A DNA stretch of 46,212 nucleotides, taken from NCBI GenBank assembly GCA_026391915.1, contig JAPLCZ010000295.1:1-46212 (forward strand). The letters are read 5' to 3'. Both the position numbers and the translations under genes were made by a program. Position 1 is the stretch's first letter. Each line of letters starts with the position of its first letter. Below are positions 27,047-45,347 of this stretch, in pieces. Under the pieces are notes generated by a model. That model ran no database searches and was not told the origin of the DNA. It saw only the letters and a list, made by a program, of their open reading frames with translations. The DNA is from Bacteroidota bacterium. GTDB lineage: Bacteria > Bacteroidota > Bacteroidia > CAILMK01.

Positions 27047-28177
27047 TTATGAGTTTAATCCCTCCATTACAAATTCTTCAACTCCTTCATAAGTAATATC
27101 TATATTCTTGTTACTAAAGAAGGTTTGAAATCTATAGCCTGCATAAAAATGTTCAACACCTTTTTGGGGTAAATCATATTTTGATAGGATTACTCTTATT
27201 TTAACTTCCTTTTTTAACATTCTTGAAAGCAATTGTCGAAGTTCAAAATCTGCTTGAGGTAATGAATATCCTATAAAAACTACTCTGTCTGCTTCTGAGA
27301 GTTCAATCCCTGCATTTTGCCAAATTAGTTTGATTTGAAAATTATTTAGGTCCTTCAAAAAAGTTGGCATTATAAGGTTAGTTCTTAGCTTTATACTTTC
27401 TTTTTGATGCCCTGAAAAATTACGTTCACAGTGTTTGCAGTGATGTGTTTTTATTAAATAAACTCCTTGAAAATTCTCATAAAAGTTAGTGTACAGCCTT
27501 TGGCACCTTGGGCAGGTCAACCAGTTCATTGAACCATGAAGTTTTAACAACTTAACATTGAATTTGCCTTTACCAAGTGCATAAAGCCCAGGCTTAATCC
27601 TTGGGTCATCTTTTAATGAACTAACATAACAGCAATAATCAACCACACCAGCAAATTCTTCTTTTGGTTTCTTAATTTTATTTAAGCCTCTCTGTAATTC
27701 ATTGTCTAGTATAATATCCCAATTGGTAGAGATAACCGCAATATTGTCAAGTTCAGGATTCTGAGCTCTATCTTGGGTTTCACTTATTAAGTGTTTTACA
27801 AATTTTTTAATGTATGCAGCATGTGGTGTTTTTATGCTTTGACTAATAGCAGTAGAAATCAAAATGTAAATATCTTCACGAATAGCCATAAGTTGCCTAG
27901 GTTCTACATCTCTAAATGAAACATCTTCTATAATACATCTATCAATCGGAGTAAATATGTCCTCTAATGAGATATTAGGTAGAGATGCCTTGGTGGTAAA
28001 AAGATTTGCTAAACTGAACTCAGTAAACCTTTCTAGAAGGGCTTCAATTTTTTTAAGCTGGTTATCATTAAGGTTGGCAACTAATGGGAGTGCTAAGATT
28101 TTACTAATAATTTCACCTTGCATGGGTGCACCACAAGGTTTTGAAAATCCAGCACCCAAAATATAAACTGTTTTCAT
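27047..28177 (-). CDS. SIR2-like (sirtuin-fold, SIR2_2-type) protein with Zn ribbon; candidate NADase effector
   Basis: VYILGAGFS, STNWD, KLHGSMNW, CPRC...CKHC and IGYS.P.AD motifs. Start at ATG 28177 (MKTVYIL). Confidence 0.85.
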   Translation of the reverse strand: MKTVYILGAGFSKPCGAPMQGEIISKILALPLVANLNDNQLKKIEALLERFTEFSLANLFTTKASLPNISLEDIFTPIDRCIIEDVSFRDVEPRQLMAIREDIYILISTAISQSIKTPHAAYIKKFVKHLISETQDRAQNPELDNIAVISTNWDIILDNELQRGLNKIKKPKEEFAGVVDYCCYVSSLKDDPRIKPGLYALGKGKFNVKLLKLHGSMNWLTCPRCQRLYTNFYENFQGVYLIKTHHCKHCERNFSGHQKESIKLRTNLIMPTFLKDLNNFQIKLIWQNAGIELSEADRVVFIGYSLPQADFELRQLLSRMLKKEVKIRVILSKYDLPQKGVEHFYAGYRFQTFFSNKNIDITYEGVEEFVMEGLNS

Positions 28178-28205
28178 TATTCCATGTTCATTTTTAACAT
28201 AGTTT

Positions 28206-29441
28206 CTACCCCACCTTGACCTGCCCATTCATAAGCATTGGCAATAGCCAATCACGCAGTTCGGAGAGTTTTTGATTTTCGATTTCATTATTCATCTTCT
28301 TAGAAAAAATTGGTGCAATAATTTTTTCTAAGACTTTAGTTAATTCCTTTGGTGGTATTGCAATTCTGCTTTGTTGCAAATGTTCTTGGGTGATATGACC
28401 CATCGTAGTTTTTCTATTTTCAGCCATCATCTTGAAGTGTTGCAAATAATTCAAAAGTTGATAGTAATAAAATGACTTTGGATAATCATTAGATGTTACT
28501 TTAAAAATGTGCTGATTTAAAGCGCCTTTTCCACCAGTCCATATTTTCACTTCTAATGAAGCAGACCATGAAAATAAAACATCTCCATTTTCTATAATCG
28601 CTTTTTCTGGAATATTTGGGCGAACTAATTCCGAATTTGAAGTAAACCCTTCATTCATTTCACGAATCTTAATGACTCTTAGAAATTCGTCTCCAGTTGG
28701 TCTAAATTTTTGACACGGCAAACCATTTGCATAATCAGCAATATCAAGCAAGGTTCCAACACTCCAACCTTCTAAATCCGGAATCTCCCTTTTCAACTCT
28801 TCATTCCAAACCATTTTACCACCACTTGTTTTGTAGTGCTTGCCTTTTGCGTTAGGAAAATCAAACTGCACAAACCAATAATCATACAGTGTTTTTGCCA
28901 TTGCTTCTAACTCGGCATTGATGCGGTTGTTGAGTTCGATTTTGGAATCTAATGCGGCAAGGACGGAGGCGATTTTTTGTTGGGTTTCCTTATTTGTGTG
29001 AATAGGCAACTCAAGTAAATCAAAATCAGTTTTATTTAAAAGTGGCAACGCTGTACTACCTGTTGATGCGTTTCTTAAAAGCTTGTAATTATTTTTGATT
29101 GAATAATAAACGTAATCTTGATAGTAATTTTTGCTCGGTATTATTGAATTTATTTGTTGATTAGTAATACAGCTTGTTTTATTCATTGACGCTTTACCCA
29201 TTGCTGAACCAATACAAGTTATCATTATACTTTTGGGTGGTAAAAGTTTGTTCGAAAGCTTAGAAACTCCTTCTTCAGAGAGATATCTTTCGGTAGTGTT
29301 CATCATTTTACTATCGAAAGAATCAGAAGGAGTAACAAACATATATTCTGAACCAAAATCTTCTGGGTTATTTGAAGATGGAGTTTTACCAGTAACTGTA
29401 TGGCCAATATCAGTAATCTTTATTTTCGCTATTTCATTCAT
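28206..29441 (-). CDS. hsdS: Type I R-M specificity subunit (two TRDs)
   Basis: TGKTPS, NQQIN, central QQKIA..L..LD.KIELN..IN..LE.MAK.LY..WF spacer, and C-terminal L..LRD.LLP.LM.G. Confidence 0.95.
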   Translation of the reverse strand: MNEIAKIKITDIGHTVTGKTPSSNNPEDFGSEYMFVTPSDSFDSKMMNTTERYLSEEGVSKLSNKLLPPKSIMITCIGSAMGKASMNKTSCITNQQINSIIPSKNYYQDYVYYSIKNNYKLLRNASTGSTALPLLNKTDFDLLELPIHTNKETQQKIASVLAALDSKIELNNRINAELEAMAKTLYDYWFVQFDFPNAKGKHYKTSGGKMVWNEELKREIPDLEGWSVGTLLDIADYANGLPCQKFRPTGDEFLRVIKIREMNEGFTSNSELVRPNIPEKAIIENGDVLFSWSASLEVKIWTGGKGALNQHIFKVTSNDYPKSFYYYQLLNYLQHFKMMAENRKTTMGHITQEHLQQSRIAIPPKELTKVLEKIIAPIFSKKMNNEIENQKLSELRDWLLPMLMNGQVKVG

Positions 29442-31200
29442 ACTTCAATCCATTTAATTGTTTCTGAATTTCTTTTTCCAAGGTTTTCGATTCGGCAAAA
29501 AGACTGTCTAAATTGCTTTTAAACCCATTCATTTTGCCTTCAAATTCCGCAGGGCTAATGTCGGTGTATTCAATTTTTACTTCAAAATATTGCCCTGCAC
29601 TTAAGCTGTAGTTTTTTTCTTTTATCTGCTCATAAGAAACCACCACCGTAAAATCTTCAACGGCTTCATGTTTGTTAAAGGTGTTGATAATGCTTTGCTC
29701 TTCGGCATCTGAAAGCAAGGTTTTTTGGTTCTTTCCTTCCTTTACGGTTGTTCCCAGTTTAGATGCATCCATCAAAACAATATCGCCTTTGGTATTGGCT
29801 TTATCCAAAAACAGAATAGATACGTTTGTGCCAGTAGTTGCAAAAATATTGCTTGGCATGCTCACCACACCCCTTAGCATTTTTTGTTCTACTAATCGTT
29901 CTCTTATCTTTTTCTCAATACCGCTTTGTGCCGTAATAAAACCTGTGGGCACAACAATAGCCGCCCTGCCTTTTGCAGTAAGTGAATACATAATGTGTTG
30001 GATAAACAAAGGATAAATAGCCATTTTATCTTTGTCCTTTTTAGGTATATTGGGGAAGCCTGCAAAAAACCTTTCGTTGTTTTGTTTAGTATCTAAATCT
30101 GCTATATAGTCGCTAAAGTCTAGCTTAAAAGGTGGGTTAGAAACTATGTAATCAAAGGTAATCAGCTTTTTATCTGCTGTTTCATGGTAGGGCTTCAAAA
30201 TGGTATTGCCTTGTATGATGTTTTGTATGGAGTGTACAAGGTTGTTTAAGATTAAATTCAACCGCAACATACTACTACTCTTCTGCGAAATATCCTGAGA
30301 ATAAATGGTACATCTGTCTTCGCCAATGGCATGCGCCAAATTCATTAGCAAAGTACCTGAACCTGCCGAGGGGTCGTAACAGGTTACGTTGCTCACGGGC
30401 TTATCTACTAAAATAGAAGCCATGATTTTTGAAACAGCATGTGGTGTATAATACTCTGCATATTTGCCACCGCCATCTTTGTTGTAATCTTTTATGAGGT
30501 ATTCAAAAATGGTAGAGAAGAAATCAAATTTCTGATTAAAGATTTTCTCAAAACTGAAATTGACCAATTGGTTAATAATGGCTTTGCAGAAATTATCCCT
30601 TTCGCTACTATCAGTAATATAATTGCTTATTTCATCAAACAACACAATCTTAGCACCTGTGCCAGTTTTTACAGAGAAAATATCATTATTGAAAATGGCA
30701 ATATCCCGTAAGGTATCATCAAATAATTTTGCAAATTCTTCTTTATCCTGCCTGTTATATAGGTTGGAGAGATAATGTTCTCTTTTGAGTTTGGCGCTAT
30801 CTGGGTTCATCCGTAGCAGCAACATTTCGTATTGCTTATCACTGTATTGGGCAATTTCCTTTTCCCAACTTTCTGCCGTTGCCAGTTTAGGTTCTAATTG
30901 TTTTACTTCGTACCCAAATTTATCATTCATGAATTTATACAGAAACACCTGGGTAATGATTTTGAATTCATTGCCATCGTTCCCTAATCCATAAGAGGTA
31001 CAAACACCTTTCAGGTTATCAATCAGCTCTTTTGTTTGTGCCGTAAAATCTTGTGTTACCATTTTCTTGTTCTCTTGTAAAATTTTGATAGGATTAAAAT
31101 CTGCTTCTGTTTCCATCAACATATTGTCTGTAATATTGTGTTTCAATAGAATTGATTTTACTCTCTCTAATTCTTCATGTTTCTTTTTTTCTTGATTCAT
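29434..31200 (-). CDS. hsdM: Type I R-M N6-adenine methyltransferase
   Basis: EYYTP, DPSAGSG (motif I) and NPPF (motif IV). A likely alternative start is at 31062. Confidence 0.95.
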   Translation of the reverse strand: MNQEKKKHEELERVKSILLKHNITDNMLMETEADFNPIKILQENKKMVTQDFTAQTKELIDNLKGVCTSYGLGNDGNEFKIITQVFLYKFMNDKFGYEVKQLEPKLATAESWEKEIAQYSDKQYEMLLLRMNPDSAKLKREHYLSNLYNRQDKEEFAKLFDDTLRDIAIFNNDIFSVKTGTGAKIVLFDEISNYITDSSERDNFCKAIINQLVNFSFEKIFNQKFDFFSTIFEYLIKDYNKDGGGKYAEYYTPHAVSKIMASILVDKPVSNVTCYDPSAGSGTLLMNLAHAIGEDRCTIYSQDISQKSSSMLRLNLILNNLVHSIQNIIQGNTILKPYHETADKKLITFDYIVSNPPFKLDFSDYIADLDTKQNNERFFAGFPNIPKKDKDKMAIYPLFIQHIMYSLTAKGRAAIVVPTGFITAQSGIEKKIRERLVEQKMLRGVVSMPSNIFATTGTNVSILFLDKANTKGDIVLMDASKLGTTVKEGKNQKTLLSDAEEQSIINTFNKHEAVEDFTVVVSYEQIKEKNYSLSAGQYFEVKIEYTDISPAEFEGKMNGFKSNLDSLFAESKTLEKEIQKQLNGLKYE

Positions 31201-31242
31201 ATATTTTTTAATTAACTACCTTCATATAAAATTAATTCTTTT

Positions 31243-34200
31243 TTATGCTGCATACTTTCCTTGATATTCGTTCATATATTCTTTTATCAAACAGCTATTA
31301 ATGTACCTAGCGGAATCAGGGTCTAGTTCAATTTTGTTTTTACCAAAACCCTCTATCACCATTTTCATCAAAAGCCCTTGAAAGAAGCTCTCATTATCCA
31401 GCATTTTGGTATTAATTAGCACCTTATCGTCCACTTGTATTTTAATGTCCATCAGCGTATCACAAATTGCACTCTCCCGTTTAGAGATGTTGCCTTTCTC
31501 CATAATACGTTTATGCATTCTGGCATATTTGGTATCATTCTCATATTTTGCTTTCAGCAAATTATTCTTGCGGTTGAGCTCTGTTATCTCGTCGTAAATT
31601 TTTTGCAATGCCTCAATATTGTTTTTCATTTCATCTTGTGTTATTTCATCAAGATTTTTTTTGTCAAACAATCTTTTTAGTTCATCATATAAACTAACAA
31701 ATTCAGGGTCATTCTGGTCAAAGTTGCCGCCTAAAGCCTCACGGGTTTTGCGAAGCATATCTTTTAACTCATCAGCTATTACCATTTCTTCTTCCGAAAT
31801 TTTACGGAACATAAACAGTACGTTTTCCAATGCTACATTTAGTAAATTGGTAGTATCCACATTGTTTTCAATATTAGCTTTCAGGTTCAGCAAATCCAAA
31901 TGGCGGGCAGCTTCATTATAAAGTTGATTCAGTTTTTTGAAATCAATTTTATCAAGCATATCAAAATAACCATACAACCGTATGAGGTTGTAAAGGTTTT
32001 TTGCACTCTCCAATGCCTTTTTAATATCCAATACCGTTTTGCGGTCTTCAATCTGGCTTATCTGCTGAGAGAATATTTCTGCGTTATTGGTATCATATTG
32101 CCAGAGTTTTTCTTTAATCTCTTTTATCTCCAGTTCAATCTCTTCTTTTGATTTAAAGAGGTTGGAGTAATGCTGCATTTCATCACCCAATTCGCCTTGC
32201 AATTCATCAAAATAGGCTTTATTAGTTTTATCAAACTCTCTGCTGATGTCGGCAAAGTCTACCACGTAGCCATATCTAAATTTTTTATATGGGCGGTTTA
32301 CACGGGTTAGTGTTTGCAGCAAGTTGTGATCTTTGATTAAACGACCTATGTATAATTTTTTCAAGCGTTTAGCATCAAACCCCGTTTGTAACATTCCATA
32401 CACAAAAAGGAAATCAATTTTGCCGTCTTTGAAACTTTCTATATCCTCTTTTCGGTTATCTTTTGAACCGACATCATGCAGGATTAAAGTAGCTGTAAGA
32501 TTTTTACTTTGACCTTTAATGTAATTACCATATTCAACAGCAGGCTCAGCAGCCATTGCATATGGTTGTACTTCTTCAATTACTTTTTGGGTTGGGTTAT
32601 ATTTGTTGATGAAAATCTCAAATAGTTTCCGTGCTTGGTCTGCACTATCACAAATCACCATTGCCCCAATGGTATGTTCGCCAAAGCGGATACGGCTTTT
32701 TACAAAGTCTTCAACAATGTAATCAAGCATTGGTTCAACAAATTTAGCATGAGCATAGATGATGCGTTTATCCGCATCCCCTTTTAGTATCTCTACTTCT
32801 TTAAGGGCTTCTTGCAATTGAATTTTATAACTGGTTTCTATGTCTTCCCTAATAAGTTTCAGGGTATAGCCATCAGCAATGGAGGCATTGTAATAGTATT
32901 TATGAATGTAGTCACCAAACGTAGCACGAGAAGTTCTGTCTTTGCTAATTAAAGGCGTACCCGTTAAACCAATCAAAATTGCGTTTCTATCAGAATTGAA
33001 AAGGTTAGCTAAAAAACTACCATCTGGACTATAGCTTCGGTGTACTTCATCCAGAAAATAAATCCGTTGTGTACTAATATCGTAATCATTGGTTTTAAGC
33101 ACATCCGTATCCTCTTTAAACTTCTGAATATTTACAACAGTAATTTCTCTTTTCCCTTGCAAGTTGTGTATTGCTTGCTTTTGCTTGAAATTTTTCAACA
33201 GTTCATCTTTTGAACTGACAGTATGCACCACCAAACCTCGGCTTTTAAATTCGTGGTGTGCCTGAATCATTAAGTCTATACGGTCAACGATAAAGTAAAA
33301 TTTTGGGACAATATTTTTCCGCTGAAAATAATCTGTTAGGTATTGCACATTATAATAAGCCAAAGCTGTTTTTCCGCTGCCTTGCGTATGCCAAATAATG
33401 CCTTTCTTTATTCCTTCGTCCAGCTTCTTTTCAATGGCTTTGGTAGCAAACAACTGTGGATACCGCATAATGTGTTTTTCCAATCCATTTGTTTCTTGCA
33501 CATAAGCAATACTGTATTTTAAAATCATAGCAAATCGTTCTTTACTAAAAAGCGAAGTAAGGATACGATTGGTAGGGGAATTGGGTTCTTTATTAGTAAT
33601 AAATTCAGGTGAATGTTTAATGGCTGAAAGATTATTGTCTTTCAAAACCAAATTCTCCAAATCATCATCTTCTGTTTTTAAGAGAGCTGCCAAATCAAAT
33701 TTTTCCTCCTCTCTAAAGCAGTTAAAATTTGCAGATGAATAAGAGGTGGAAGAGTAAAACGCCCCTTGTATGGGTTCAATAGATTCAATATCATATTCCA
33801 TGTTATTGGAGAAAACCAACACTTGAGAAATATTGATAAACTTGCGGAACTTCTTATTTTTGAATCTAACATTGATGCGGTCTCTTTCCTGCAAAACCCC
33901 TTCTTGGTTATTCGGTTTTTTTACTTCAATAAATGCCAGTGGCATTCCATTAATCAAAAGCGTTATATCTGGTCTAAATTCATCATCCCCGTTTTTGTAG
34001 GTAAGTTCCGTTACCACATTTAAGGTATTATTGCTGAAATCTTTGAAGTCAATAAGCTTTATGCCAGAGGTAGCTGTAAGCATATTGTAAAATGCTTCAC
34101 CCAAATCTTCATTGTCTAATGCAAGGCATATATTTTCATAAGCTCTTTTAATATCCCCATCTTCAATATCTGGGTTAAGCCGTTTGATACTTTCATTAAA

Positions 34201-34326
34201 AATATCGGTAAATATATTTGTAGTGATATCCCATTTCGCCTTTGACAACGAAACATAGCTATACCCTAACCTGCACAGGTGCAGGATTGCTGGAAGCTTT
34301 ACTCTTGTATTTTCGTTGAAACTCAT
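31243..34326 (-). CDS. hsdR: Type I R-M restriction subunit
   Basis: PD.TL.ING.P..FIEVK nuclease, HTQGSGKT Walker A, DEVH, TGFD and Q...RVNR motifs. Start 34326 (MSFNE); the ORF-track extension runs through a palindromic repeat. Confidence 0.95.
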   Translation of the reverse strand: MSFNENTRVKLPAILHLCRLGYSYVSLSKAKWDITTNIFTDIFNESIKRLNPDIEDGDIKRAYENICLALDNEDLGEAFYNMLTATSGIKLIDFKDFSNNTLNVVTELTYKNGDDEFRPDITLLINGMPLAFIEVKKPNNQEGVLQERDRINVRFKNKKFRKFINISQVLVFSNNMEYDIESIEPIQGAFYSSTSYSSANFNCFREEEKFDLAALLKTEDDDLENLVLKDNNLSAIKHSPEFITNKEPNSPTNRILTSLFSKERFAMILKYSIAYVQETNGLEKHIMRYPQLFATKAIEKKLDEGIKKGIIWHTQGSGKTALAYYNVQYLTDYFQRKNIVPKFYFIVDRIDLMIQAHHEFKSRGLVVHTVSSKDELLKNFKQKQAIHNLQGKREITVVNIQKFKEDTDVLKTNDYDISTQRIYFLDEVHRSYSPDGSFLANLFNSDRNAILIGLTGTPLISKDRTSRATFGDYIHKYYYNASIADGYTLKLIREDIETSYKIQLQEALKEVEILKGDADKRIIYAHAKFVEPMLDYIVEDFVKSRIRFGEHTIGAMVICDSADQARKLFEIFINKYNPTQKVIEEVQPYAMAAEPAVEYGNYIKGQSKNLTATLILHDVGSKDNRKEDIESFKDGKIDFLFVYGMLQTGFDAKRLKKLYIGRLIKDHNLLQTLTRVNRPYKKFRYGYVVDFADISREFDKTNKAYFDELQGELGDEMQHYSNLFKSKEEIELEIKEIKEKLWQYDTNNAEIFSQQISQIEDRKTVLDIKKALESAKNLYNLIRLYGYFDMLDKIDFKKLNQLYNEAARHLDLLNLKANIENNVDTTNLLNVALENVLFMFRKISEEEMVIADELKDMLRKTREALGGNFDQNDPEFVSLYDELKRLFDKKNLDEITQDEMKNNIEALQKIYDEITELNRKNNLLKAKYENDTKYARMHKRIMEKGNISKRESAICDTLMDIKIQVDDKVLINTKMLDNESFFQGLLMKMVIEGFGKNKIELDPDSARYINSCLIKEYMNEYQGKYAA

Positions 34327-34387
34327 CCTTTTTCTCAGCAGCCAAATTAGCGTTAAAAAGGGAATAAAAGGAAAAGCTATATTTAAT

Positions 34388-34420
34388 CCTCCCCCTGCAC
34401 CCCCTCCAATGAGGGGGACA
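34388..34420. repeat. C/G-rich palindromic repeat (CCCCCTC-CAAT-GAGGGGG)
   Basis: Hairpin with a C-rich tail, architecturally similar to 41354-41384 and 44022-44154. Confidence 0.6.
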
Positions 34421-34582
34421 TCACTCCGATGTTGGTTTCTGCTAAATGGGTTGAGGGTAGGCATCAGGGAAATCATTTAATCATGTGAACAAACGAAGTG
34501 ACTCATGAACTCCTTAATAAAATAAAATACGCGTAAATAATCATGGTTCAGACGTTTTTAAGGTTCAGACAAAAGGAAAGAG

Positions 34583-34605
34583 GCTTCGACAAACTCAGCC
34601 TGACA
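34583..34605 (-). repeat. REP-like unit (TGTCAGGCTGAGTTTGTCGAAGC)
   Basis: GTCA-headed unit similar to those at 4958-5020 and 41397-41460. Confidence 0.65.
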
Positions 34606-34775
34606 ACCGCACTTTTTCCCGTGACAACCGCGCCATTTCCCCCCTAACCCCCTCACCCCACCCTCCACTACAAAAAAAATATTTCAGATTTTTGAACAGA
34701 AATCCAAAGATTAACCATATCTTAGCTGTAGAATTTTTTATATCTATTTTATATCATGTTTTATTTATTCAATTT

Positions 34776-35165
34776 ATGTATTCCTATTCAAAACTTCAGT
34801 GCGGCTGTTTCAGTAAAGCATGCCAAGGCTTTCCTGATTACAAAGGTTTTCTAAACTCTTTTGCAACTGCTTTCCGTAATAGCTGCACTGATTTTTTAAA
34901 ATCCTGTAGCTTTTTAGATGGTGTCCGCAACTACTTAGATAATGTTCGCCCTGCTCTCAACAATCGTTGCACTTACTTGGCTAATGGTTGCACTACTTTA
35001 GATGGATATTGCACTTCTCTCAACAGTTGTTGCACTTCTTTGTTTCAGAAAAATATTTACTTAGATAGTTGTTGCACTTCTCTCAATAATCATTGCACTT
35101 ACTTAGATGATTCCCGCACCACTCTCAAAAGGGGTTGCACTTACTTAGATAATCATCCCCCCTAA
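34776..35165 (+). CDS. Putative 129-aa Cys/Leu heptad-repeat protein
   Basis: ATG 34776 is in frame with ORF 34692..35165. 17 uninterrupted heptads. Coding status is unproven. Confidence 0.5.
   Translation: MYSYSKLQCGCFSKACQGFPDYKGFLNSFATAFRNSCTDFLKSCSFLDGVRNYLDNVRPALNNRCTYLANGCTTLDGYCTSLNSCCTSLFQKNIYLDSCCTSLNNHCTYLDDSRTTLKRGCTYLDNHPP
34800..35156 (+). repeat. Degenerate tandem array of 17 x 21-bp units (consensus about TGCACTTMYYTMRAYRRTNRT)
   Basis: Example units TGCACTTACTTAGATAATCAT, TGCACTTCTCTCAATAATCAT and TGCACTTACTTGGCTAATGGT. No indel across the 357 bp. Confidence 0.85.
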
Positions 35166-35257
35166 AATATTATGCGGCCAAAAGGAAATTTCCATCAGCC
35201 AAAACCTTAAACAATATTATTATTCAATTTTATTTATAAATTTTAAAAAATACCGAA

Positions 35258-36235
35258 ATGACAAATTCAAAAAAAATAAAAAGAAAGTTCAGCAAGCCGG
35301 ACTCCGAAATGGAAACACAGGCTGATAGCTTTGAACAACAATTAGTAGATGATTTAAATGATTTTACTACCTTCCGCCCCAGTTTTAATGTGGGGTATGT
35401 AACTGCCTTCCACGGCGAAATAGTAATTGCCCGTGCTGCTACCCCTCCAGAAATAGGCAGGGCACAATTAACTGCTATCACGCAGCAGGTGGACGAAAAA
35501 ACTGCCGCCTGTGTATTGCTGTTTGCTGATTTAATGTACTCAGTAAAAGAGACTTTTCCTAAGCAACCCGGCATGTGGAAGAGTTTTGGAAGCGGTTTAT
35601 TAACCAAAGCAAGGAAAAGCGGTGGCAAAATGGTGAGCCTTTTAACGGTAGCGCATGATGCTGCTGATGAAAATAGTGCAGCATTAATTGCTAAAGATTA
35701 TACACAGTTAAAGATTGATGCTTTAGGGACAGAGGCTACTGCCCTTGATGTACTTTGCAAGGCGCAGGAAAAGAAGAAAGCTGATAACCGCGCTGATGAA
35801 GAGGATTATGTAAATAAACTCAATTCTGTTTGGGGCATAATGACGGTAATTAGCAAAGCTGCCAAGAGGATTTACAAAGATTCTCCGGCGCACTACCGCA
35901 ATTATTTATTATACCCTGATAGCACCAGCCACGTACAAAACTTTAGTTTGGATATTCCTGCTGGTGGGTTTGTGTCCTTAGCACTTAACCACCCATTGCA
36001 CATTGATACGCTATTGCATATGGTAAATGATGGCGTTACCTTATTACGTATTTGCCGAAGCGAGATAGCGGCAGCTTGTGGCAATATACCGCCTAATGAG
36101 CAGGGCATTCCGCTAAATCCGGGGCAACTTCTGGATATGAATGCTGGAGGCCTTGGCGTAGGTGAATTCTTAATTGTAACTAACCTTGACCCCGCTTTAA
36201 ATGGGCACATAACCATGGTGGTTACTTGGGTGTAG
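35258..36235 (+). CDS. Uncharacterised 325-aa protein (about 220-aa helical N-terminus plus about 100-aa beta-rich C-terminus, no signal peptide)
   Basis: Long ORF with an A-rich translation start context and a downstream terminator. No family I can name with confidence. Confidence 0.8.
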   Translation: MTNSKKIKRKFSKPDSEMETQADSFEQQLVDDLNDFTTFRPSFNVGYVTAFHGEIVIARAATPPEIGRAQLTAITQQVDEKTAACVLLFADLMYSVKETFPKQPGMWKSFGSGLLTKARKSGGKMVSLLTVAHDAADENSAALIAKDYTQLKIDALGTEATALDVLCKAQEKKKADNRADEEDYVNKLNSVWGIMTVISKAAKRIYKDSPAHYRNYLLYPDSTSHVQNFSLDIPAGGFVSLALNHPLHIDTLLHMVNDGVTLLRICRSEIAAACGNIPPNEQGIPLNPGQLLDMNAGGLGVGEFLIVTNLDPALNGHITMVVTWV

Positions 36236-36307
36236 GGGGGGAAGAGTTGTCAGTTTACAGTTATCAGTTGTCAGAAAAAAGCTGAGACCTATTACATTAA
36301 AGTGGGG

Positions 36308-36337
36308 AAAAAGACGGTGTAGCAGCCGTCTTTTTTT
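36308..36337. terminator. Bidirectional intrinsic terminator
   Basis: AAAAAGACGG-TGTAGCAG-CCGTCTTTTTTT between convergent genes. Confidence 0.85.
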
Positions 36338-36356: not shown

Positions 36357-37466
36357 TTATATAATCACAAAATTCTTAATCAACTCCTCTCTAAAGGTTT
36401 TACCAATTGGTATTTTTTTGTCATTCACGGTGAGCTCTTGATAATCAATACTACTGATTAGATCTTTGTTTACTATATAGCTCCTGTGTGTTCTTACAAA
36501 TTTGCTTGATGGCATAATTTCCATCATTTCTTTCATGGTGATATGGGAGACGTAAGTCTTTTTTGAGGTACAAATTTTTACATAGTTACCCAGACTTTCA
36601 AACCAATAAATATCTTCTATAAGCACTCTATAGAGGGTGTTTTTTTCGCGAACAAAAAAGTATTTATCAGTATCCCCAAAGCTTTCTTCCTTCTTGATAA
36701 TTTTATTAAATCTGCTTGGGGTGTCATCTTCCAAATCAGGTCGTAAGGTTAATACATATCCATCAATACCTTTATCCTCAAAAACTGAAAGCTTACCAGT
36801 AACTCTAACTTTATTTCCACTTTTATTAATGATGAAAATATTGTCGCTTAAGGTTTCATCCAACTTAATACTTTCTGCCTCTGGCAGGCTTTGTATAATA
36901 TCCCAACCTGGCCCATCTTCAATTTCTAAAACATCATTTACTGGCGTGCCTTGATTTTCATCTACTGGCCAGCCTGTAATATCTTCTGCATTAGGATTAC
37001 AAAATTGTATTTCACCTGCTTTGTTGATGATAAAAACGGCATCTTCCAGCGCATCAATCACTGCACTGTAACGCGTAAGGTTATCTGAAAGAATTTTGTT
37101 TTTTTCATGATTGGCAATAGCTAAAGTGATACTTGCCTTGATGTTATCTGGGCGGTAAGGTTTTACAATATAGCCATACTGCTCAGTACTTTGTGCCTTA
37201 TTAATAGTATCGGCATCGGTTCGGGCAGTGACAAAAATTACAGGGATATCAAATCTGAGGCTCATAACATTAGCAACCTCAATCCCATCCTTTTCTCCTT
37301 CCAGATTAATATCTGAAAAAGCTAACTCTGGATTTCCCTCCTCTGCTAGTTTAATGGCTTGGTCATAACTTGCTGCATGCCCCACTACCTCATGTCCTAG
37401 TTTATGCAGAACCTTGGATAAGGTGGCTGCTGACATTGGTTCATCTTCAACAATAAGTATCTTCAT
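36357..37466 (-). CDS. Response regulator, REC-PAS-LytTR architecture
   Basis: ILIVEDE, SDINL (phospho-Asp), VTA and KP in the receiver; DAVF.....G.I.F.N..AE..TG PAS; ES.GNY and F.R.HRSYIVN LytTR. Confidence 0.9.
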   Translation of the reverse strand: MKILIVEDEPMSAATLSKVLHKLGHEVVGHAASYDQAIKLAEEGNPELAFSDINLEGEKDGIEVANVMSLRFDIPVIFVTARTDADTINKAQSTEQYGYIVKPYRPDNIKASITLAIANHEKNKILSDNLTRYSAVIDALEDAVFIINKAGEIQFCNPNAEDITGWPVDENQGTPVNDVLEIEDGPGWDIIQSLPEAESIKLDETLSDNIFIINKSGNKVRVTGKLSVFEDKGIDGYVLTLRPDLEDDTPSRFNKIIKKEESFGDTDKYFFVREKNTLYRVLIEDIYWFESLGNYVKICTSKKTYVSHITMKEMMEIMPSSKFVRTHRSYIVNKDLISSIDYQELTVNDKKIPIGKTFREELIKNFVII

Positions 37467-37478
37467 TTTTGATTTTGT

Positions 37479-38621
37479 TTAGAAAGTAAAAGTATATTCA
37501 ATTGCAGCATCGGGGGTATGGCTTTTATAATCAAAAGACAACCCTGAGTTGCCTGTTATTGTTAGTATCCCCATGCCAATAAGTTTCGCAAAATCGCTAT
37601 TAATAACATCCTCCGCAACATTAAATATCCCCATCAGTTGATTAGTAGTGATTGTAGAATTATTACACACCTGCCAAATTATTTCCTCCTGCCTTGTGTT
37701 TAAATTTTCCAGCTTTTCACGATGGATAGGAAAGCCAACATCCATCCAGAAATTAAAATTATTGAGTTGCTGTGGGGTGGCATCTTTCATCCCAGCTTTC
37801 TCTTTAAGTTTATTGAAATATAACTCCTCAATAATTTTTACATTAGTTAACATCCCCTGCAGGCTAATTGTAATATAGGAAGTAAGATTTGCCCTCATGC
37901 GGGTTTCAAAATCCTGTGATTCAAAATTACTGATGTTATACGCCATCATCCTTTTGCTGTGCCACACATATTTTTCAAGCTTTAATAGACTGTTGAACCC
38001 ATAGCCCTCTGCCTCCAGAATATTGTAACAAACCGATGAAGCTATCAATTCATTTTCGGTATAAAAAGGCTTTATAGCGCGAATGAAATAGTAAACCATC
38101 CATGCTTTGATTAATGGATGCAATTTATGATTATCCGTAAGTTGGTTGAAGGCTGCCGCATAATCATTCGGGTTAGGCAGGCTATCATCTTCAACTCTAT
38201 TAATTCCAAAAAGCCCAGATGTTTTTTCTCTGAATTTGGCAGCATCAGCCTCCTCGGGTAATTTAGCAACGGCAACTTTATGAAGTTTTTTCAGGTAATT
38301 AAAATTAATCCTTTCGTTTGCTTTTTCTTCTGGAAACTGTAAAATCCTAAACACATTGGCAGCTTTTTGTTGCACTGTATTTTTAGGTTTTCCAAATCCG
38401 TTAATCACCATAACAATTTCCTGTTCATCCTCACTACTAGCCTCTGGTGGCATATAATGCATCATTCTGCTGAGGCCGGCGCGGCGGCGTTCTTCCTCAA
38501 ATAAAGAATGAGAAAGCTTGTAGTAGCCTGCAAAATCGTTTACAGTTTCCAACTCAGCAATCAGGTTTTTAATATCCTCTGTTAGCTCAAAATCTAATGC
38601 TGTAACTCTTCCTTCTGCCAT
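37479..38621 (-). CDS. Fic-fold protein with a degenerate active site and a C-terminal wHTH
   Basis: LKKLHK, HPLIKA....Y....IKPFYTENELIAS in place of HPFxDGNGRxxR. Tail LN.RQ..I...T...DF..L...G.L. Start at ATG 38621. Confidence 0.7.
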   Translation of the reverse strand: MAEGRVTALDFELTEDIKNLIAELETVNDFAGYYKLSHSLFEEERRRAGLSRMMHYMPPEASSEDEQEIVMVINGFGKPKNTVQQKAANVFRILQFPEEKANERINFNYLKKLHKVAVAKLPEEADAAKFREKTSGLFGINRVEDDSLPNPNDYAAAFNQLTDNHKLHPLIKAWMVYYFIRAIKPFYTENELIASSVCYNILEAEGYGFNSLLKLEKYVWHSKRMMAYNISNFESQDFETRMRANLTSYITISLQGMLTNVKIIEELYFNKLKEKAGMKDATPQQLNNFNFWMDVGFPIHREKLENLNTRQEEIIWQVCNNSTITTNQLMGIFNVAEDVINSDFAKLIGMGILTITGNSGLSFDYKSHTPDAAIEYTFTF

Positions 38622-38703
38622 GGGTTGATAAAAATCATTTAAATAAATGAGCACAAATATTATGATTCTACTGAGATTTGTGAACTATTATTTATACACA
38701 TTA

Positions 38704-40621: not shown

Positions 40622-40659
40622 TAAGTTGAAGCCCCTGCAATGCTTTTTAGCAGCGAACT

Positions 40660-42135
40660 TTGAACTTTAAACTTCAAACTTTGCCCGCCCCACAACTCGC
40701 CCTACTTAAAAAACTTTTTAGCCCGGATGCCGCTTTGGTTATTCTGGATATTGGTGCTTGTGATGGGGCGGATTCTGTAATGTATAAAAGGGAATTTACC
40801 CATGCTACCATCCATGCTTTTGAACCATTGCCACGCAATAAAATTTTATTGGAAGAGGGTTTTACTAAAAATGGGTTCAAAGATTTGAATGCACATTTCT
40901 TTGCTTTGGGGAAAGATAATGGGATGGCTGATTTCTATGTTTCTTCGGGTGCGCCGCCAGAGAAACCCTATGGCGAAAATTGGGATTATGGCAACAAAAG
41001 CAGTTCATTTTATGCACCAGATAAAGTGAGTAAAACGCACCCTTGGTTGAAGTTTGAAACCAAGATTAAAGTAGAGGTACAGCGGTTGGATTCTTTTGTT
41101 GCAGCACATAAAATTGAGGCAATAGATTTTATTCATTTGGATGTGCAAGGTGCTGAGTTGGATGTGCTAATTGGTGCAGGTGATTTCCTTAAAAATATAA
41201 AAGCAATTTGGCTGGAGGTGGAGAATATTACCCTCTACAAAAACCAACCTTTGCGTGCAGAGGTGGAGAAATTTATGTTGACAAATGGCTTCAACAAAAT
41301 TCATGAAGAGAATAGGAAAAATGATGGGGATGAGTTTTGGGTGAATAATTTAGCCTCACCCCAACCCCTCTCCAAAGGAGAGGGACAAGAAAAAAGAGAT
41401 GCTTCGTACCTCAGCATGACAGGTGTGAGGGGTGTCATCCTGAACGGAGTGAAGGAACTCTTATTGAAACTCCGCTCCATCCTTCAACCCCCACCCCCCC
41501 TACCCTCTTCTTACGCACAACATGGAGAAGATTTAATTATTCAAAAAATCTTTTCCGAACTCAAAATTACACAACCTTTTTATCTTGATATTGGGGCACA
41601 TCATCCTAAAAATGGAAGCAATACTTTTTTGTTTTATAGGGAGGGCGCAAGCGGAATAACTGTGGAGCCGGATGAAGATTTTTATCTGAAACATAAAAAA
41701 GAACGCCCCAAAGATTTGCAGCTAAATATGGCTGTTGGGGTACAGGATGCTAGGTTTTTGTTATATGCACTTTCTCCATCAACGCTGAGTACTACCAATA
41801 CTGAGGAAGCAGAAAGGTTGCAAAAAGAAGGCTTGGCTACACTCCGCCACAGCAAAGAAGTGGAGGTAATTGGTATCAATAAATTATTGGAAAAATATGT
41901 GGGCGAAAAGCCCTTGCATCTGCTAAGTATTGATGCGGAAAGTATGGATGATGCCATTGTGCGTGGAATAGATTTCAACCGCTTTAAACCAACGGTAATT
42001 TGTGTGGAAACTATCTCTTATTCGGAGACTGGAGACGGAGTAAAAAACGAATCACTGATAAAATATATTACAGGAATAGGCTACCAAATCCACGCGGATA
42101 CTGGTGTTAACACTATTTTTGTGCGCAGAGAATAA
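40660..42135 (+). CDS. Tandem double FkbM-family methyltransferase
   Basis: Domain 1 has LDIGA.DG, AFEP and HLDVQGAE. Domain 2 has SYAQ.GED, LDIGA.HP..GSNT, VEP and SIDAE. The linker is encoded by palindromic repeats. Confidence 0.88.
   Translation: MNFKLQTLPAPQLALLKKLFSPDAALVILDIGACDGADSVMYKREFTHATIHAFEPLPRNKILLEEGFTKNGFKDLNAHFFALGKDNGMADFYVSSGAPPEKPYGENWDYGNKSSSFYAPDKVSKTHPWLKFETKIKVEVQRLDSFVAAHKIEAIDFIHLDVQGAELDVLIGAGDFLKNIKAIWLEVENITLYKNQPLRAEVEKFMLTNGFNKIHEENRKNDGDEFWVNNLASPQPLSKGEGQEKRDASYLSMTGVRGVILNGVKELLLKLRSILQPPPPLPSSYAQHGEDLIIQKIFSELKITQPFYLDIGAHHPKNGSNTFLFYREGASGITVEPDEDFYLKHKKERPKDLQLNMAVGVQDARFLLYALSPSTLSTTNTEEAERLQKEGLATLRHSKEVEVIGINKLLEKYVGEKPLHLLSIDAESMDDAIVRGIDFNRFKPTVICVETISYSETGDGVKNESLIKYITGIGYQIHADTGVNTIFVRRE
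41354..41384 (+). repeat. Palindromic repeat CCTCACCCCAACCCCTCTCC-AAA-GGAGAGGG inside a CDS
   Basis: Same family as the intergenic units at 44022-44154. Confidence 0.85.
41397..41460. repeat. REP-like doublet inside a CDS; inverted copy of 4958-5020
   Basis: AGATGCTTCGTACCTCAGCATGAC (1 mismatch in 24) and GTCATCCTGAACGGAGTGAAGGAACTC (2 mismatches in 27) against the reverse complement of the 4958-5020 units. Confidence 0.88.
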
Positions 42136-44185: not shown

Positions 44186-45277
44186 ATGCGCATTTTCTAC
44201 GCCTCACACCAGCAGGGGAATCATAATCCCAACTCCAAAACATGGTATAATAATCTGTACCTGCCGCTTTGTGATATTGCGAAAGAGGTAGTGCCTTTTG
44301 ATTTTGATTTAACAGAATTTGCCCTGCACCAAGATGAAACTATTCCGCAAAATGCTGAGTGGCTAAAACTCAACAGACCTATGTTGGAAGAACAACTCCT
44401 CACGCAAATCAAAAAAGAAAATCAGCGGAAAAAGATTGATGTATTCTTTAGCTATTTTGCCAGTAGTTATTGTAGCAAATCCGTGATTGAAGAAATAAAA
44501 AGCCTTGGCATCCTCACAGTAAATTGGTTCTGTAATGCCTCCTACCAATTTCATTTAATAAAAGACTTAGCACCTGCCTTTGACTACTGCCTTGTACCCG
44601 AAAAATTCAGATTATTAGATTACCAAAACGCTGGGGCAAACCCCATTTATTGCCAGGAGGCAGCCAACCCAAACGTATGCAAAAACCTAAACCTATCTCA
44701 AGATATTGATGCCTCTTTTGTAGGCACGCGCTACGCAGATAGATACCTTTACCTACGTCAATTATTTAATGTAGGCGTAGCGGTGCAGGTGTATGGGCAA
44801 AACTGGCAGCGCACTAAAAAAGACAGTTTTAAAGGACTCATCCGCACTGCCTATGAGTTAGTTTCCGTGAGCAAAAATCTACCTGAAAATGCAATGCATC
44901 CCTTTGCGGATGATGCCGAAATGCTACAGATTTTTAACCGCAGCAAAATCAACCTTGGTTTTTCTGTTTGTGGAGATACTCACACTGCCAAAACCACAAT
45001 ACGGCAGGTGCGCCTCCGTGATTTTGAAGTGCCCATGAGCGCAGGTTTTTATATGAGTGAAACCAACCCTGAGTTGGCGGATTTCTTTGAACCCGAAAAA
45101 GAAATTGTGTTTTTTAGCAATGCCGAGGAGTTGGCAGATAAAGCAAAATTCTATTTAAAGCATGAAACCCTCCGCAACCAAATAAGGATGGCGGCACACA
45201 AAAGAGCCCTCAATGAACATAGTTGGCAAAAAAGGTTGAAGGGGGTGTTTGGGGAGATGGGGGAGTTAAAAGTTTAA
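44186..45277 (+). CDS. CgeB-like glycosyltransferase (GT-B, Glyco_trans_1_2 type)
   Basis: FVG..Y..R, YG..W, SKINL, R.FE.P..GF, F..EKEI..F and EH.W..R motifs. Confidence 0.85.
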   Translation: MRIFYASHQQGNHNPNSKTWYNNLYLPLCDIAKEVVPFDFDLTEFALHQDETIPQNAEWLKLNRPMLEEQLLTQIKKENQRKKIDVFFSYFASSYCSKSVIEEIKSLGILTVNWFCNASYQFHLIKDLAPAFDYCLVPEKFRLLDYQNAGANPIYCQEAANPNVCKNLNLSQDIDASFVGTRYADRYLYLRQLFNVGVAVQVYGQNWQRTKKDSFKGLIRTAYELVSVSKNLPENAMHPFADDAEMLQIFNRSKINLGFSVCGDTHTAKTTIRQVRLRDFEVPMSAGFYMSETNPELADFFEPEKEIVFFSNAEELADKAKFYLKHETLRNQIRMAAHKRALNEHSWQKRLKGVFGEMGELKV

Positions 45278-45347
45278 AGTTTCAGGTTTAATGTTATGGG
45301 AGAAGTCAGTTTCATTTATCTTTGCTTGACGTCTTGAAAAAAATATA

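Follow-up and report, generated by a model that had tools for sequence, protein, structure and literature searches.

A row of 21-bp units lying on the promoter side of a gene for a 325-residue protein in a Bacteroidota genome is non-coding DNA, and is one member of a class of about 70 arrays with the same sharp period in that genome. The reading we prefer, tentatively and with confidence a shade below even, is that it forms a row of phased protein-binding sites controlling the downstream gene, in the manner of an operator or of plasmid iterons. A phased, non-coding DNA-binding array, with 21 bp equal to two turns of the helix, was one of two possibilities raised by the first-pass annotation of this DNA and fits all of the data.

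The window, i.e. the whole stretch of 46,212 nucleotides that was analysed, is chromosomal Bacteroidota DNA carrying T9SS sorting domains and fatty-acid and EF-P genes. The array occupies part of the 780 bp that separate the start of a type I restriction R-subunit gene (31243..34476, minus strand) from the 325-aa ORF (35258..36235, plus strand), among the following features:

34601..34641, no strand assigned: a separate two-unit 21-bp direct repeat (TGACAACCGC...) of another unit sequence, 160 bp upstream of the array
34776..35165, plus strand: a 129-aa open frame over the array, judged fortuitous (no family, homologue or codon-period conservation)
34800..35156, no strand assigned: the 21-bp periodic array of 17 units (self-match, consensus match, column conservation)
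35166..35257, plus strand: the 92-bp gap between array and start codon, presumed to be the core-promoter region (-7 box search)
35258..36235, plus strand: the gene for the 325-aa protein, of the family here called A1 (ORF, profile search, structure model)
36245..36274, no strand assigned: a heptamer tandem repeat (CAGTTnn type) directly 3' of the stop codon of the 325-aa gene, belonging to a separate, known repeat class
36308..36335, plus strand: a perfect 10-bp inverted repeat with a run of T after it, resembling an intrinsic terminator and closing a single-gene unit
36357..37466, minus strand: a Response_reg-PAS-LytTR gene, 3' of the 325-aa gene

Next on the minus strand after the Response_reg-PAS-LytTR gene comes a Fic-like gene (37479-38654; a weak SoFic match), and a SIR2-like gene with a complete type I restriction-modification set (hsdS, hsdM and hsdR) occupies 27047-34476; together these genes make the neighbourhood look like a defence island. 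The TGACAACCGC repeat and C-rich tracts flank the array (34601-34641, 34636-34660, 35157-35165 and 36228-36243). The sequence CCCCCCTAA is present twice, before the array (34638) and at its end (35157), and TAGGGGGGG, complementary to CCCCCCTAA, lies 3' of the stop codon of the 325-aa gene, so that array and gene are bracketed by a 16-nt, 81% inverted repeat.

The repeat proper begins at 34800, position 34776 being the ATG of the overlying ORF, and the 21-nt periodicity first noted by eye is borne out, with 17 units at 34800-35156 of which 14 are clear (34863-35156). Self-match of 34800..35165 reaches 0.42, 0.49 and 0.52 at lags of 21, 42 and 63, against 0.20-0.33 at every remaining lag up to 69. 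Lags 7 and 14 are no exception, with background values of 0.21 and 0.23, so there is no 7-nt unit. Compared with a consensus drawn from the 3' units, the 14 clear units agree at 11-17 of their 21 positions, set against a window background with a mean of 5.8 and a probability of 0.004 for 12 or more. Agreement in the first three units (34800-34862) is only 9-10 of 21, and the earlier remark that the array becomes more uniform towards its 3' end therefore holds. The periodicity is far beyond chance, though degenerate; Tandem Repeats Finder flags only the last 97 bases (35057-35153), as period 42. Two unit subtypes, with TTAGAT and CTCAAY cores, alternate along the array, and the conserved blocks of the unit, TGCACT and TTAGAT/CTCAAY, are spaced about 9-10 bp apart, columns 19, 20, 8, 12 and 13 being the most variable. 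Taken alone, the window array gives no significant conservation signal at 10.5 bp (k=2 share 0.02-0.14). DNA contigs of four runs cover the array in fragments only; among them, pieces from a second study are identical to the window over 34941-35091 and 35058-35208, with no indels. That this is not a CRISPR was rightly said at the outset: the units are contiguous, 21 bp from start to start, and have no spacers.

Retranslation of the plus-strand frame 34776..35165 gives a protein and 17 heptads exactly as originally written, free of stops and indels. Cys heads 11 of the 17 heptads, and the fourth residue is always Leu (13 of 17) or Phe (4 of 17). These regularities, and the 129 open codons headed by an ATG, favour the other possibility raised by the first-pass annotation, i.e. 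that the array encodes a coiled coil of 129 aa, built of Cys(a)/Leu(d) heptads and engaged in metal binding or redox sensing, an account to which we now give almost no credence. The frame stays open because one stop-free unit is repeated. A gene-strand open frame is indeed found in 33 of 60 arrays at homologous positions, but repetition alone would yield 27.4 under a column-permutation null, and the other 27, beside homologous genes in this and other genomes, have no such frame. On the opposite strand a frame is open in 22 of the 60 (25.8 expected), and 23 have stops in all six frames (25.1 expected). Within this genome, at least one stop-free frame exists in 53 of 72 arrays, as compared with 45.6 expected when unit columns are permuted; 19 of the 72 have stops in all six frames, and the array most like that of the window (C212) has 3-12 stops in every frame. 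The motif ACTTAGA, common to the window and its nearest paralogous locus (C1), reads Y-L-D here and T-L-R there. Conservation is equally indifferent to codons: the codon-period (k=7) share of the window array is 0.03 (P=0.80), third codon positions (columns 3, 6, 15, 18 and 21) are conserved like the rest, and the codon-period component over 80 arrays has z=-0.9. The 129-aa ORF belongs to no Pfam or PADLOC family and had no homologue at E<=0.01 in a word-indexed protein search of lengths 70-226 aa only, in a collection from which its own sequence is absent. The first-pass annotation had named stops or frame changes in homologous arrays as evidence against the protein; both are found beside homologues of 35258..36235, frame conservation is not, and the thiol-cored coiled coil thus appears, on these comparisons, to be largely refuted.

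Arrays were called across the whole 3.29-Mb genome (325 contigs) by our own lag-self-match score, at a minimum of four units. Seventy-two have a period of 21 (13,483 nt in total), 15 a period of 42 and 2 a period of 63; the same scan found 51 at period 7, 2 at 14, 2 at 22, and none at 20, 28 or 35. The consensus units of the 72 are almost all different, with GC contents of 15-54%. A few unit types recur at two or three loci, that of the window being found also at C212:278-548 and that of C182:4163-4327 also at C204:39638-39901. Searched for as copies of other genomic sequence, only 18 of the 72 consensuses have 16-24-nt matches outside arrays, mostly marginal ones.

Placement of the arrays relative to genes was assessed with plain ORFs of at least 120 aa, in a genome that is a fragmented bin with many arrays at contig ends. 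Sixty-five of the 72 arrays overlap no such ORF, and the 43 with ORFs on both sides comprise 15 divergent, 26 co-directional and 2 convergent arrangements, the last two at one locus. Nine of 18 paralogous loci have an exact TAnnTTTG, which we take to be the Bacteroidetes -7 consensus, downstream of the array and at -16 to -60 relative to the ATG; one of the 18 has it in the 150 nt preceding the array. From these -7 boxes between array and start codon, and from the scarcity of convergent placements, it follows that the arrays lie mostly upstream of the core promoter. The window's own gap (35166..35257) holds no exact TAnnTTTG, only TAAATTT at -21.

Association with particular gene families extends across genomes. 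With an association defined as a 21-bp array at most 1 kb upstream of the gene, and foreign genomes scanned at the loci only, the A1 family gave the following counts:

Assessable A1 genes of this genome: array in 14 of 22
A1 loci of two genomes of the same class: array in 13 of 20
A1 loci of metagenomes and MAGs with at least 240 nt upstream: array in 9 of 10
A1 loci of a phylum sample (13 further genomes): array in 22 of 27, with a downstream control of 1 of 27

The longest array at the phylum-sample loci has 33 units. The periodicity that the first-pass annotation proposed to look for upstream of homologues of 35258..36235 is therefore present in other genomes, and its alternative of a local minisatellite is ruled out because 21-bp arrays stand beside homologues elsewhere. 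The A3 family, unrelated to A1 by sequence, has an array at 7 of 8 assessable genes here and at 8 of 14 loci in five other genomes (downstream control 0 of 14). Two more of the 14 foreign loci have a period of 22 or 43, and at A3 loci L140, L150 and L147 of other genomes periods of 22, 43 or 14 occur instead of or besides 21, so that the period is not absolutely fixed outside this genome. A third family, A4, has an array at 4 of 5 genes here, and A1, A3 and A4 are mutually unrelated by profile comparison (hhalign probability <1%). An A1, A3 or A4 gene is found no more than 800 nt downstream of the array in only 23 of the 72 cases; in 21 the contig ends nearby and shows no family gene, and the remaining 28 stand beside other genes, T9SS cargo genes among them. 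At orthologous loci of a neighbouring gene (80-90% identical) in 11 relatives there is no array, the best lag-21 score over the whole locus being at most 13 against 74 here. Arrays are thus absent at housekeeping-gene orthologues, and therefore travel with accessory genes.

Arrays also show constraint at the level of single columns. Over 80 arrays of at least six units, column conservation has excess power at periods of 21 (z=5.0) and 10.5 (z=6.3) and none at 3, the conserved columns forming about two blocks one helical turn apart with saturated columns between them; examples are TGGRAA-N5-TGACRT-N4 and the palindrome TTCAG-N4-CTGAA. At locus L110 of a complete genome (G205), 430-73 nt upstream of a family gene, about 4 units are followed by about 12 in the opposite orientation, and both sub-arrays share the 12-nt core CAACACGGCCAC. 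Unit similarity is 0.58 where downstream proteins are at least 70% identical (n=4), 0.415 at 50-70% (n=19; reverse-strand control 0.351) and 0.364 at 40-50%, the background being 0.346 +/- 0.045; units thus co-diverge with the downstream protein. Periods of 21, 42 and 63, all multiples of 10.5, a place upstream of the promoter, conserved blocks, cores in two orientations and co-divergence are what would be expected of phased protein-binding sites. It is worth noting however, as a point against our preferred reading, that block-wise conservation could partly reflect duplication history.

The same genome contains further repeats and mobile sequences. Heptamer arrays occupy 218 sites genome-wide, those of the window being at 36245-36274, 40655-40681 and 45264-45295. 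Their types are few and common (CAGTTGT, AGTTTAA, AATGAAT, GAGTTAT, ACAGCGG) and resemble the published TAACTGA type, and some adjoin 21-bp arrays (C15, C45, C153, C277). A mechanism common to both was considered and rejected: 21-bp arrays elsewhere occur without heptamers (2 of 27 loci), periods of 14, 28 and 35 are nearly absent, and the 21-bp arrays have no residual 7-nt periodicity. The heptamer arrays are a class separate from the 21-bp arrays. Intergenic heptamer repeats of TAACTGA type are known from Beggiatoaceae, cyanobacteria and five Bacteroidetes (PMC4679880). They are like the 21-bp arrays in being abundant, lineage-restricted, intergenic, tandem and upstream of genes, and unlike them in having a few common unit types within a few nucleotides of start codons, where the 21-bp units are nearly unique and lie upstream of the promoter. 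The final ~140 nt of an insertion sequence present in many copies recur about 23 times at contig ends (e.g. C212:1-141, C1:1-142, C257:1-140, C19:7858-7999, C243:16212-16350 and C44:4571-4609). Of 23 such ends, ten are no more than about 200 nt from a 21-bp array and four adjoin one, as compared with 34 of 2000 random 700-nt windows; it seems that the element prefers arrays as targets or that insertion there is tolerated. The C-terminal peptide of the element presumably resembles IS256-type transposases; PF00872, the family of IS256-type transposases, was not found in the bin. GC-rich hairpin repeats (...CCTCTCC-AAAG-GGAGAGG...) with ...GACCTCACCCC... flanks recur intergenically, including in array-gene gaps at C204:31472 and C19:5978, and are probably a REP-like dispersed element.

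The main rival to binding sites is a phase-preserving, largely sequence-blind minisatellite process, in which a lineage-specific mechanism generates two-turn duplications near promoters, only steps that keep the helical phase are tolerated, and the letters are read by no factor, leaving arrays that are functionless or merely structural. We regard this as unlikely, whilst taking it seriously. In its favour, the unit sequences look arbitrary, with their wide range of GC and no excess of palindromy (10.4 versus 10.1 of 21) or, relative to shuffled units, of A-tracts; the arrays are lineage-specific, as the 11 relatives illustrate; the genome is rich in heptamer repeats; the permitted periods are exact integer multiples of 10.5; and an insertion sequence frequently sits beside arrays (10 of 23 ends), as expected of dispensable DNA. 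Against it, a process blind to sequence does not account for conserved columns blocked at a 10.5-bp spacing with saturated neighbouring columns, nor for unit similarity still present when the proteins are only about 59% identical, a divergence at which neutral sequence ought to have been randomised. The association with gene families across at least 13 genomes, with clean downstream controls, and the same core in both orientations of one array also argue for sites that are read. A purely structural role finds no help in predicted curvature, which in a wedge model with approximate parameters is no greater for arrays than for column-permuted arrays (0.910 versus 0.907), the window array itself being predicted straight (0.96).

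If the letters are read, they might be read in RNA rather than DNA: the array could form part of a leader or a transcript by itself, and the RNA could act as a sponge with many sites or give rise to RNAs of 21 nt. A unit of 21 nt recalls the sizes of small RNAs, and at the 9 of 18 loci, including the window, without a -7 box between array and ATG, a promoter upstream of the array is possible. We nevertheless consider such an element improbable. The two strands of 38 oriented arrays do not differ consistently in composition (AT skew +0.03, with 20 of the 38 positive; GC skew -0.09), and folding of either strand is no better than that of shuffles (z=-0.84 and +1.11), which together point to duplex DNA rather than RNA. 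Sub-arrays in both orientations speak the same way, and Rfam gave no match over the window at gathering thresholds. The idea of Argonaute guides was likewise rejected, there being no Piwi or Argonaute gene in five carrier genomes.

Among proteins that might read the duplex, the product of the neighbouring LytTR response regulator gene (36357..37466, minus strand) suggests itself. LytTR sites are described as 9-bp direct repeats 10-13 bp apart, i.e. about two turns, and like the arrays they lie upstream of promoters (PMC11347149); a 21-bp period fits the 19-22 bp of such operators. The regulator gene lies 1.2 kb from the window array, and two of the four LytTR genes of the genome are within about 1.3 kb of a 21-bp array (the window and C182:4163-4327). 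That the array is this regulator's operator is nonetheless very improbable, and the regulator is a weak candidate binder: it is convergent with the 325-aa gene and does not adjoin the array, and arrays accompany A1 and A3 genes in other genomes. Known operators have 2-3 repeats of one 8-9-bp motif (PMC11347149), whereas the arrays have 5-33 units with two different blocks, at least 14 in the window's own. One cognate regulator would moreover be expected for each operator type; in this genome, where LytTR genes were sought, 72 arrays with different unit types stand against only four of them.

Returning to phased binding sites, the mechanism we propose is as follows. Immediately before the promoter of the 325-aa gene, the window array would present about 14-17 recognition sites, repeated every two turns of the helix. 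Two short conserved blocks would lie about one turn apart in each unit, so that all sites would face the same side of the helix, and a sequence-specific protein or cooperative oligomer would bind along that one face. Bound protein would then control transcription of the downstream single-gene unit. The array may have arisen by tandem duplication of 21 or 42 bp at a time, a process that may also keep its units alike, with unit sequence changing together with the downstream gene. Protein binding, the identity of the binder and the regulatory effect are steps that we infer from position, phasing and constraint. The most economical candidate for the binder, purely by conjecture, might be the product of the downstream gene itself, in which case array and gene would be a cassette that regulates itself through an address of its own. 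At least three unrelated families, as well as other neighbours, have arrays before them, and therefore a strict rule that each product binds its own array is not general.

In an AlphaFold model with a pLDDT of 94 the 325-aa protein folds into two domains, a helical bundle at the N terminus (about residues 15-214) and a beta-sandwich or jelly-roll at the C terminus (225-324); no signal peptide is evident by eye, and it has no Pfam family. Foldseek and VIA return generic helical-bundle and jelly-roll matches. For the N-terminal domain the fold search finds a generic four-helix bundle, the best match being LemA with a Z of 10.8, a value not above noise when the model is helical. No Rep or winged-helix fold is among the matches listed, and the predicted fold gives no hint of DNA binding. 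Searched against Pfam, NCBIfam, PHROGs and PADLOC, the N-terminal domain has nothing beyond a sub-threshold match to a 'PQLLE family' (E 7e-6, 25.8 bits against a cut-off of 80), and a profile search of the PDB reaches only the C-terminal, carboxypeptidase-regulatory-like part of relatives. Atlas matches are hypothetical Bacteroidota clusters only, a single-protein query found no close orthologues in metagenome contigs, and a related-locus search in genome contigs gave only two loci. Paralogues are plentiful: the protein has 15 matches at E<=1 in its own genome, the nearest (locus C1) being 54% identical over the full-length protein, and most have an upstream 21-nt array, each with a different unit sequence. 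The A1 profile finds 2270 representative proteins at E<=0.001 (50% identity clustering). Carriage of A1 is patchy, at 0 of 7 genomes of the same taxonomic family, 0 of 17 of the same order, 9-11 copies in each of two genomes of the same class, and 13 of 400 sampled genomes of the phylum.

Plasmid replication and partition offer the closest points of comparison. Iterons are 22 bp long in the gamma origin of R6K and 19 bp in P1 and F. Like iterons with their Rep gene, the arrays are tandem direct repeats of about 17-22 bp with two-turn spacing, placed immediately before a gene some 300 codons long; the unit is private to the module and co-diverges with the gene, and sub-arrays are sometimes inverted. 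Unlike iterons, they come as dozens of modules on one chromosome and also precede unrelated families, and the adjoining protein, a predicted helical bundle and beta-sandwich without a Pfam family, is not of Rep_3 or winged-helix type. Partition repeats of type Ib/II (parC of R1 and of pSK41) are short tandem repeats that precede the operon for the protein binding them, which coats one face of the DNA cooperatively and regulates its own operon. Here, by contrast, there is no partition ATPase or actin-like partner, and the arrays are chromosomal, many per genome, and have longer units. A literature search, with subscription journals outside its reach, found no description of such 21-bp arrays or of the 'PQLLE' family, nor of this regulatory architecture or the array-associated protein families.

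A bolder version of our reading is that array and gene are self-contained cassettes, in which each member of several fast-evolving Bacteroidota families (a helical N-terminal and a beta-sandwich C-terminal domain, with no known DNA-binding motif) reads a private 21-bp code and polymerises along one face of 100-700 bp of DNA upstream of the promoter, which would amount to a new class of DNA-binding protein with iteron-like autoregulation in dozens of copies per chromosome; we think this distinctly unlikely as a whole, though not fanciful. Two practical consequences concern the handling of such genomes: many of their contig breaks are explained by the arrays, and annotators should beware of the long open frames over them, which repetition produces as an artefact. 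Should the binding-site reading hold, a few percent of Bacteroidota genomes (13 of the 400 sampled) carry dozens of long, private, phased arrays before accessory genes. If true, the modules would form a natural library in which each DNA address is paired orthogonally with its partner, and would provide an experimental handle on the function of at least two unannotated protein families, of which A1 alone has 2270 representatives.
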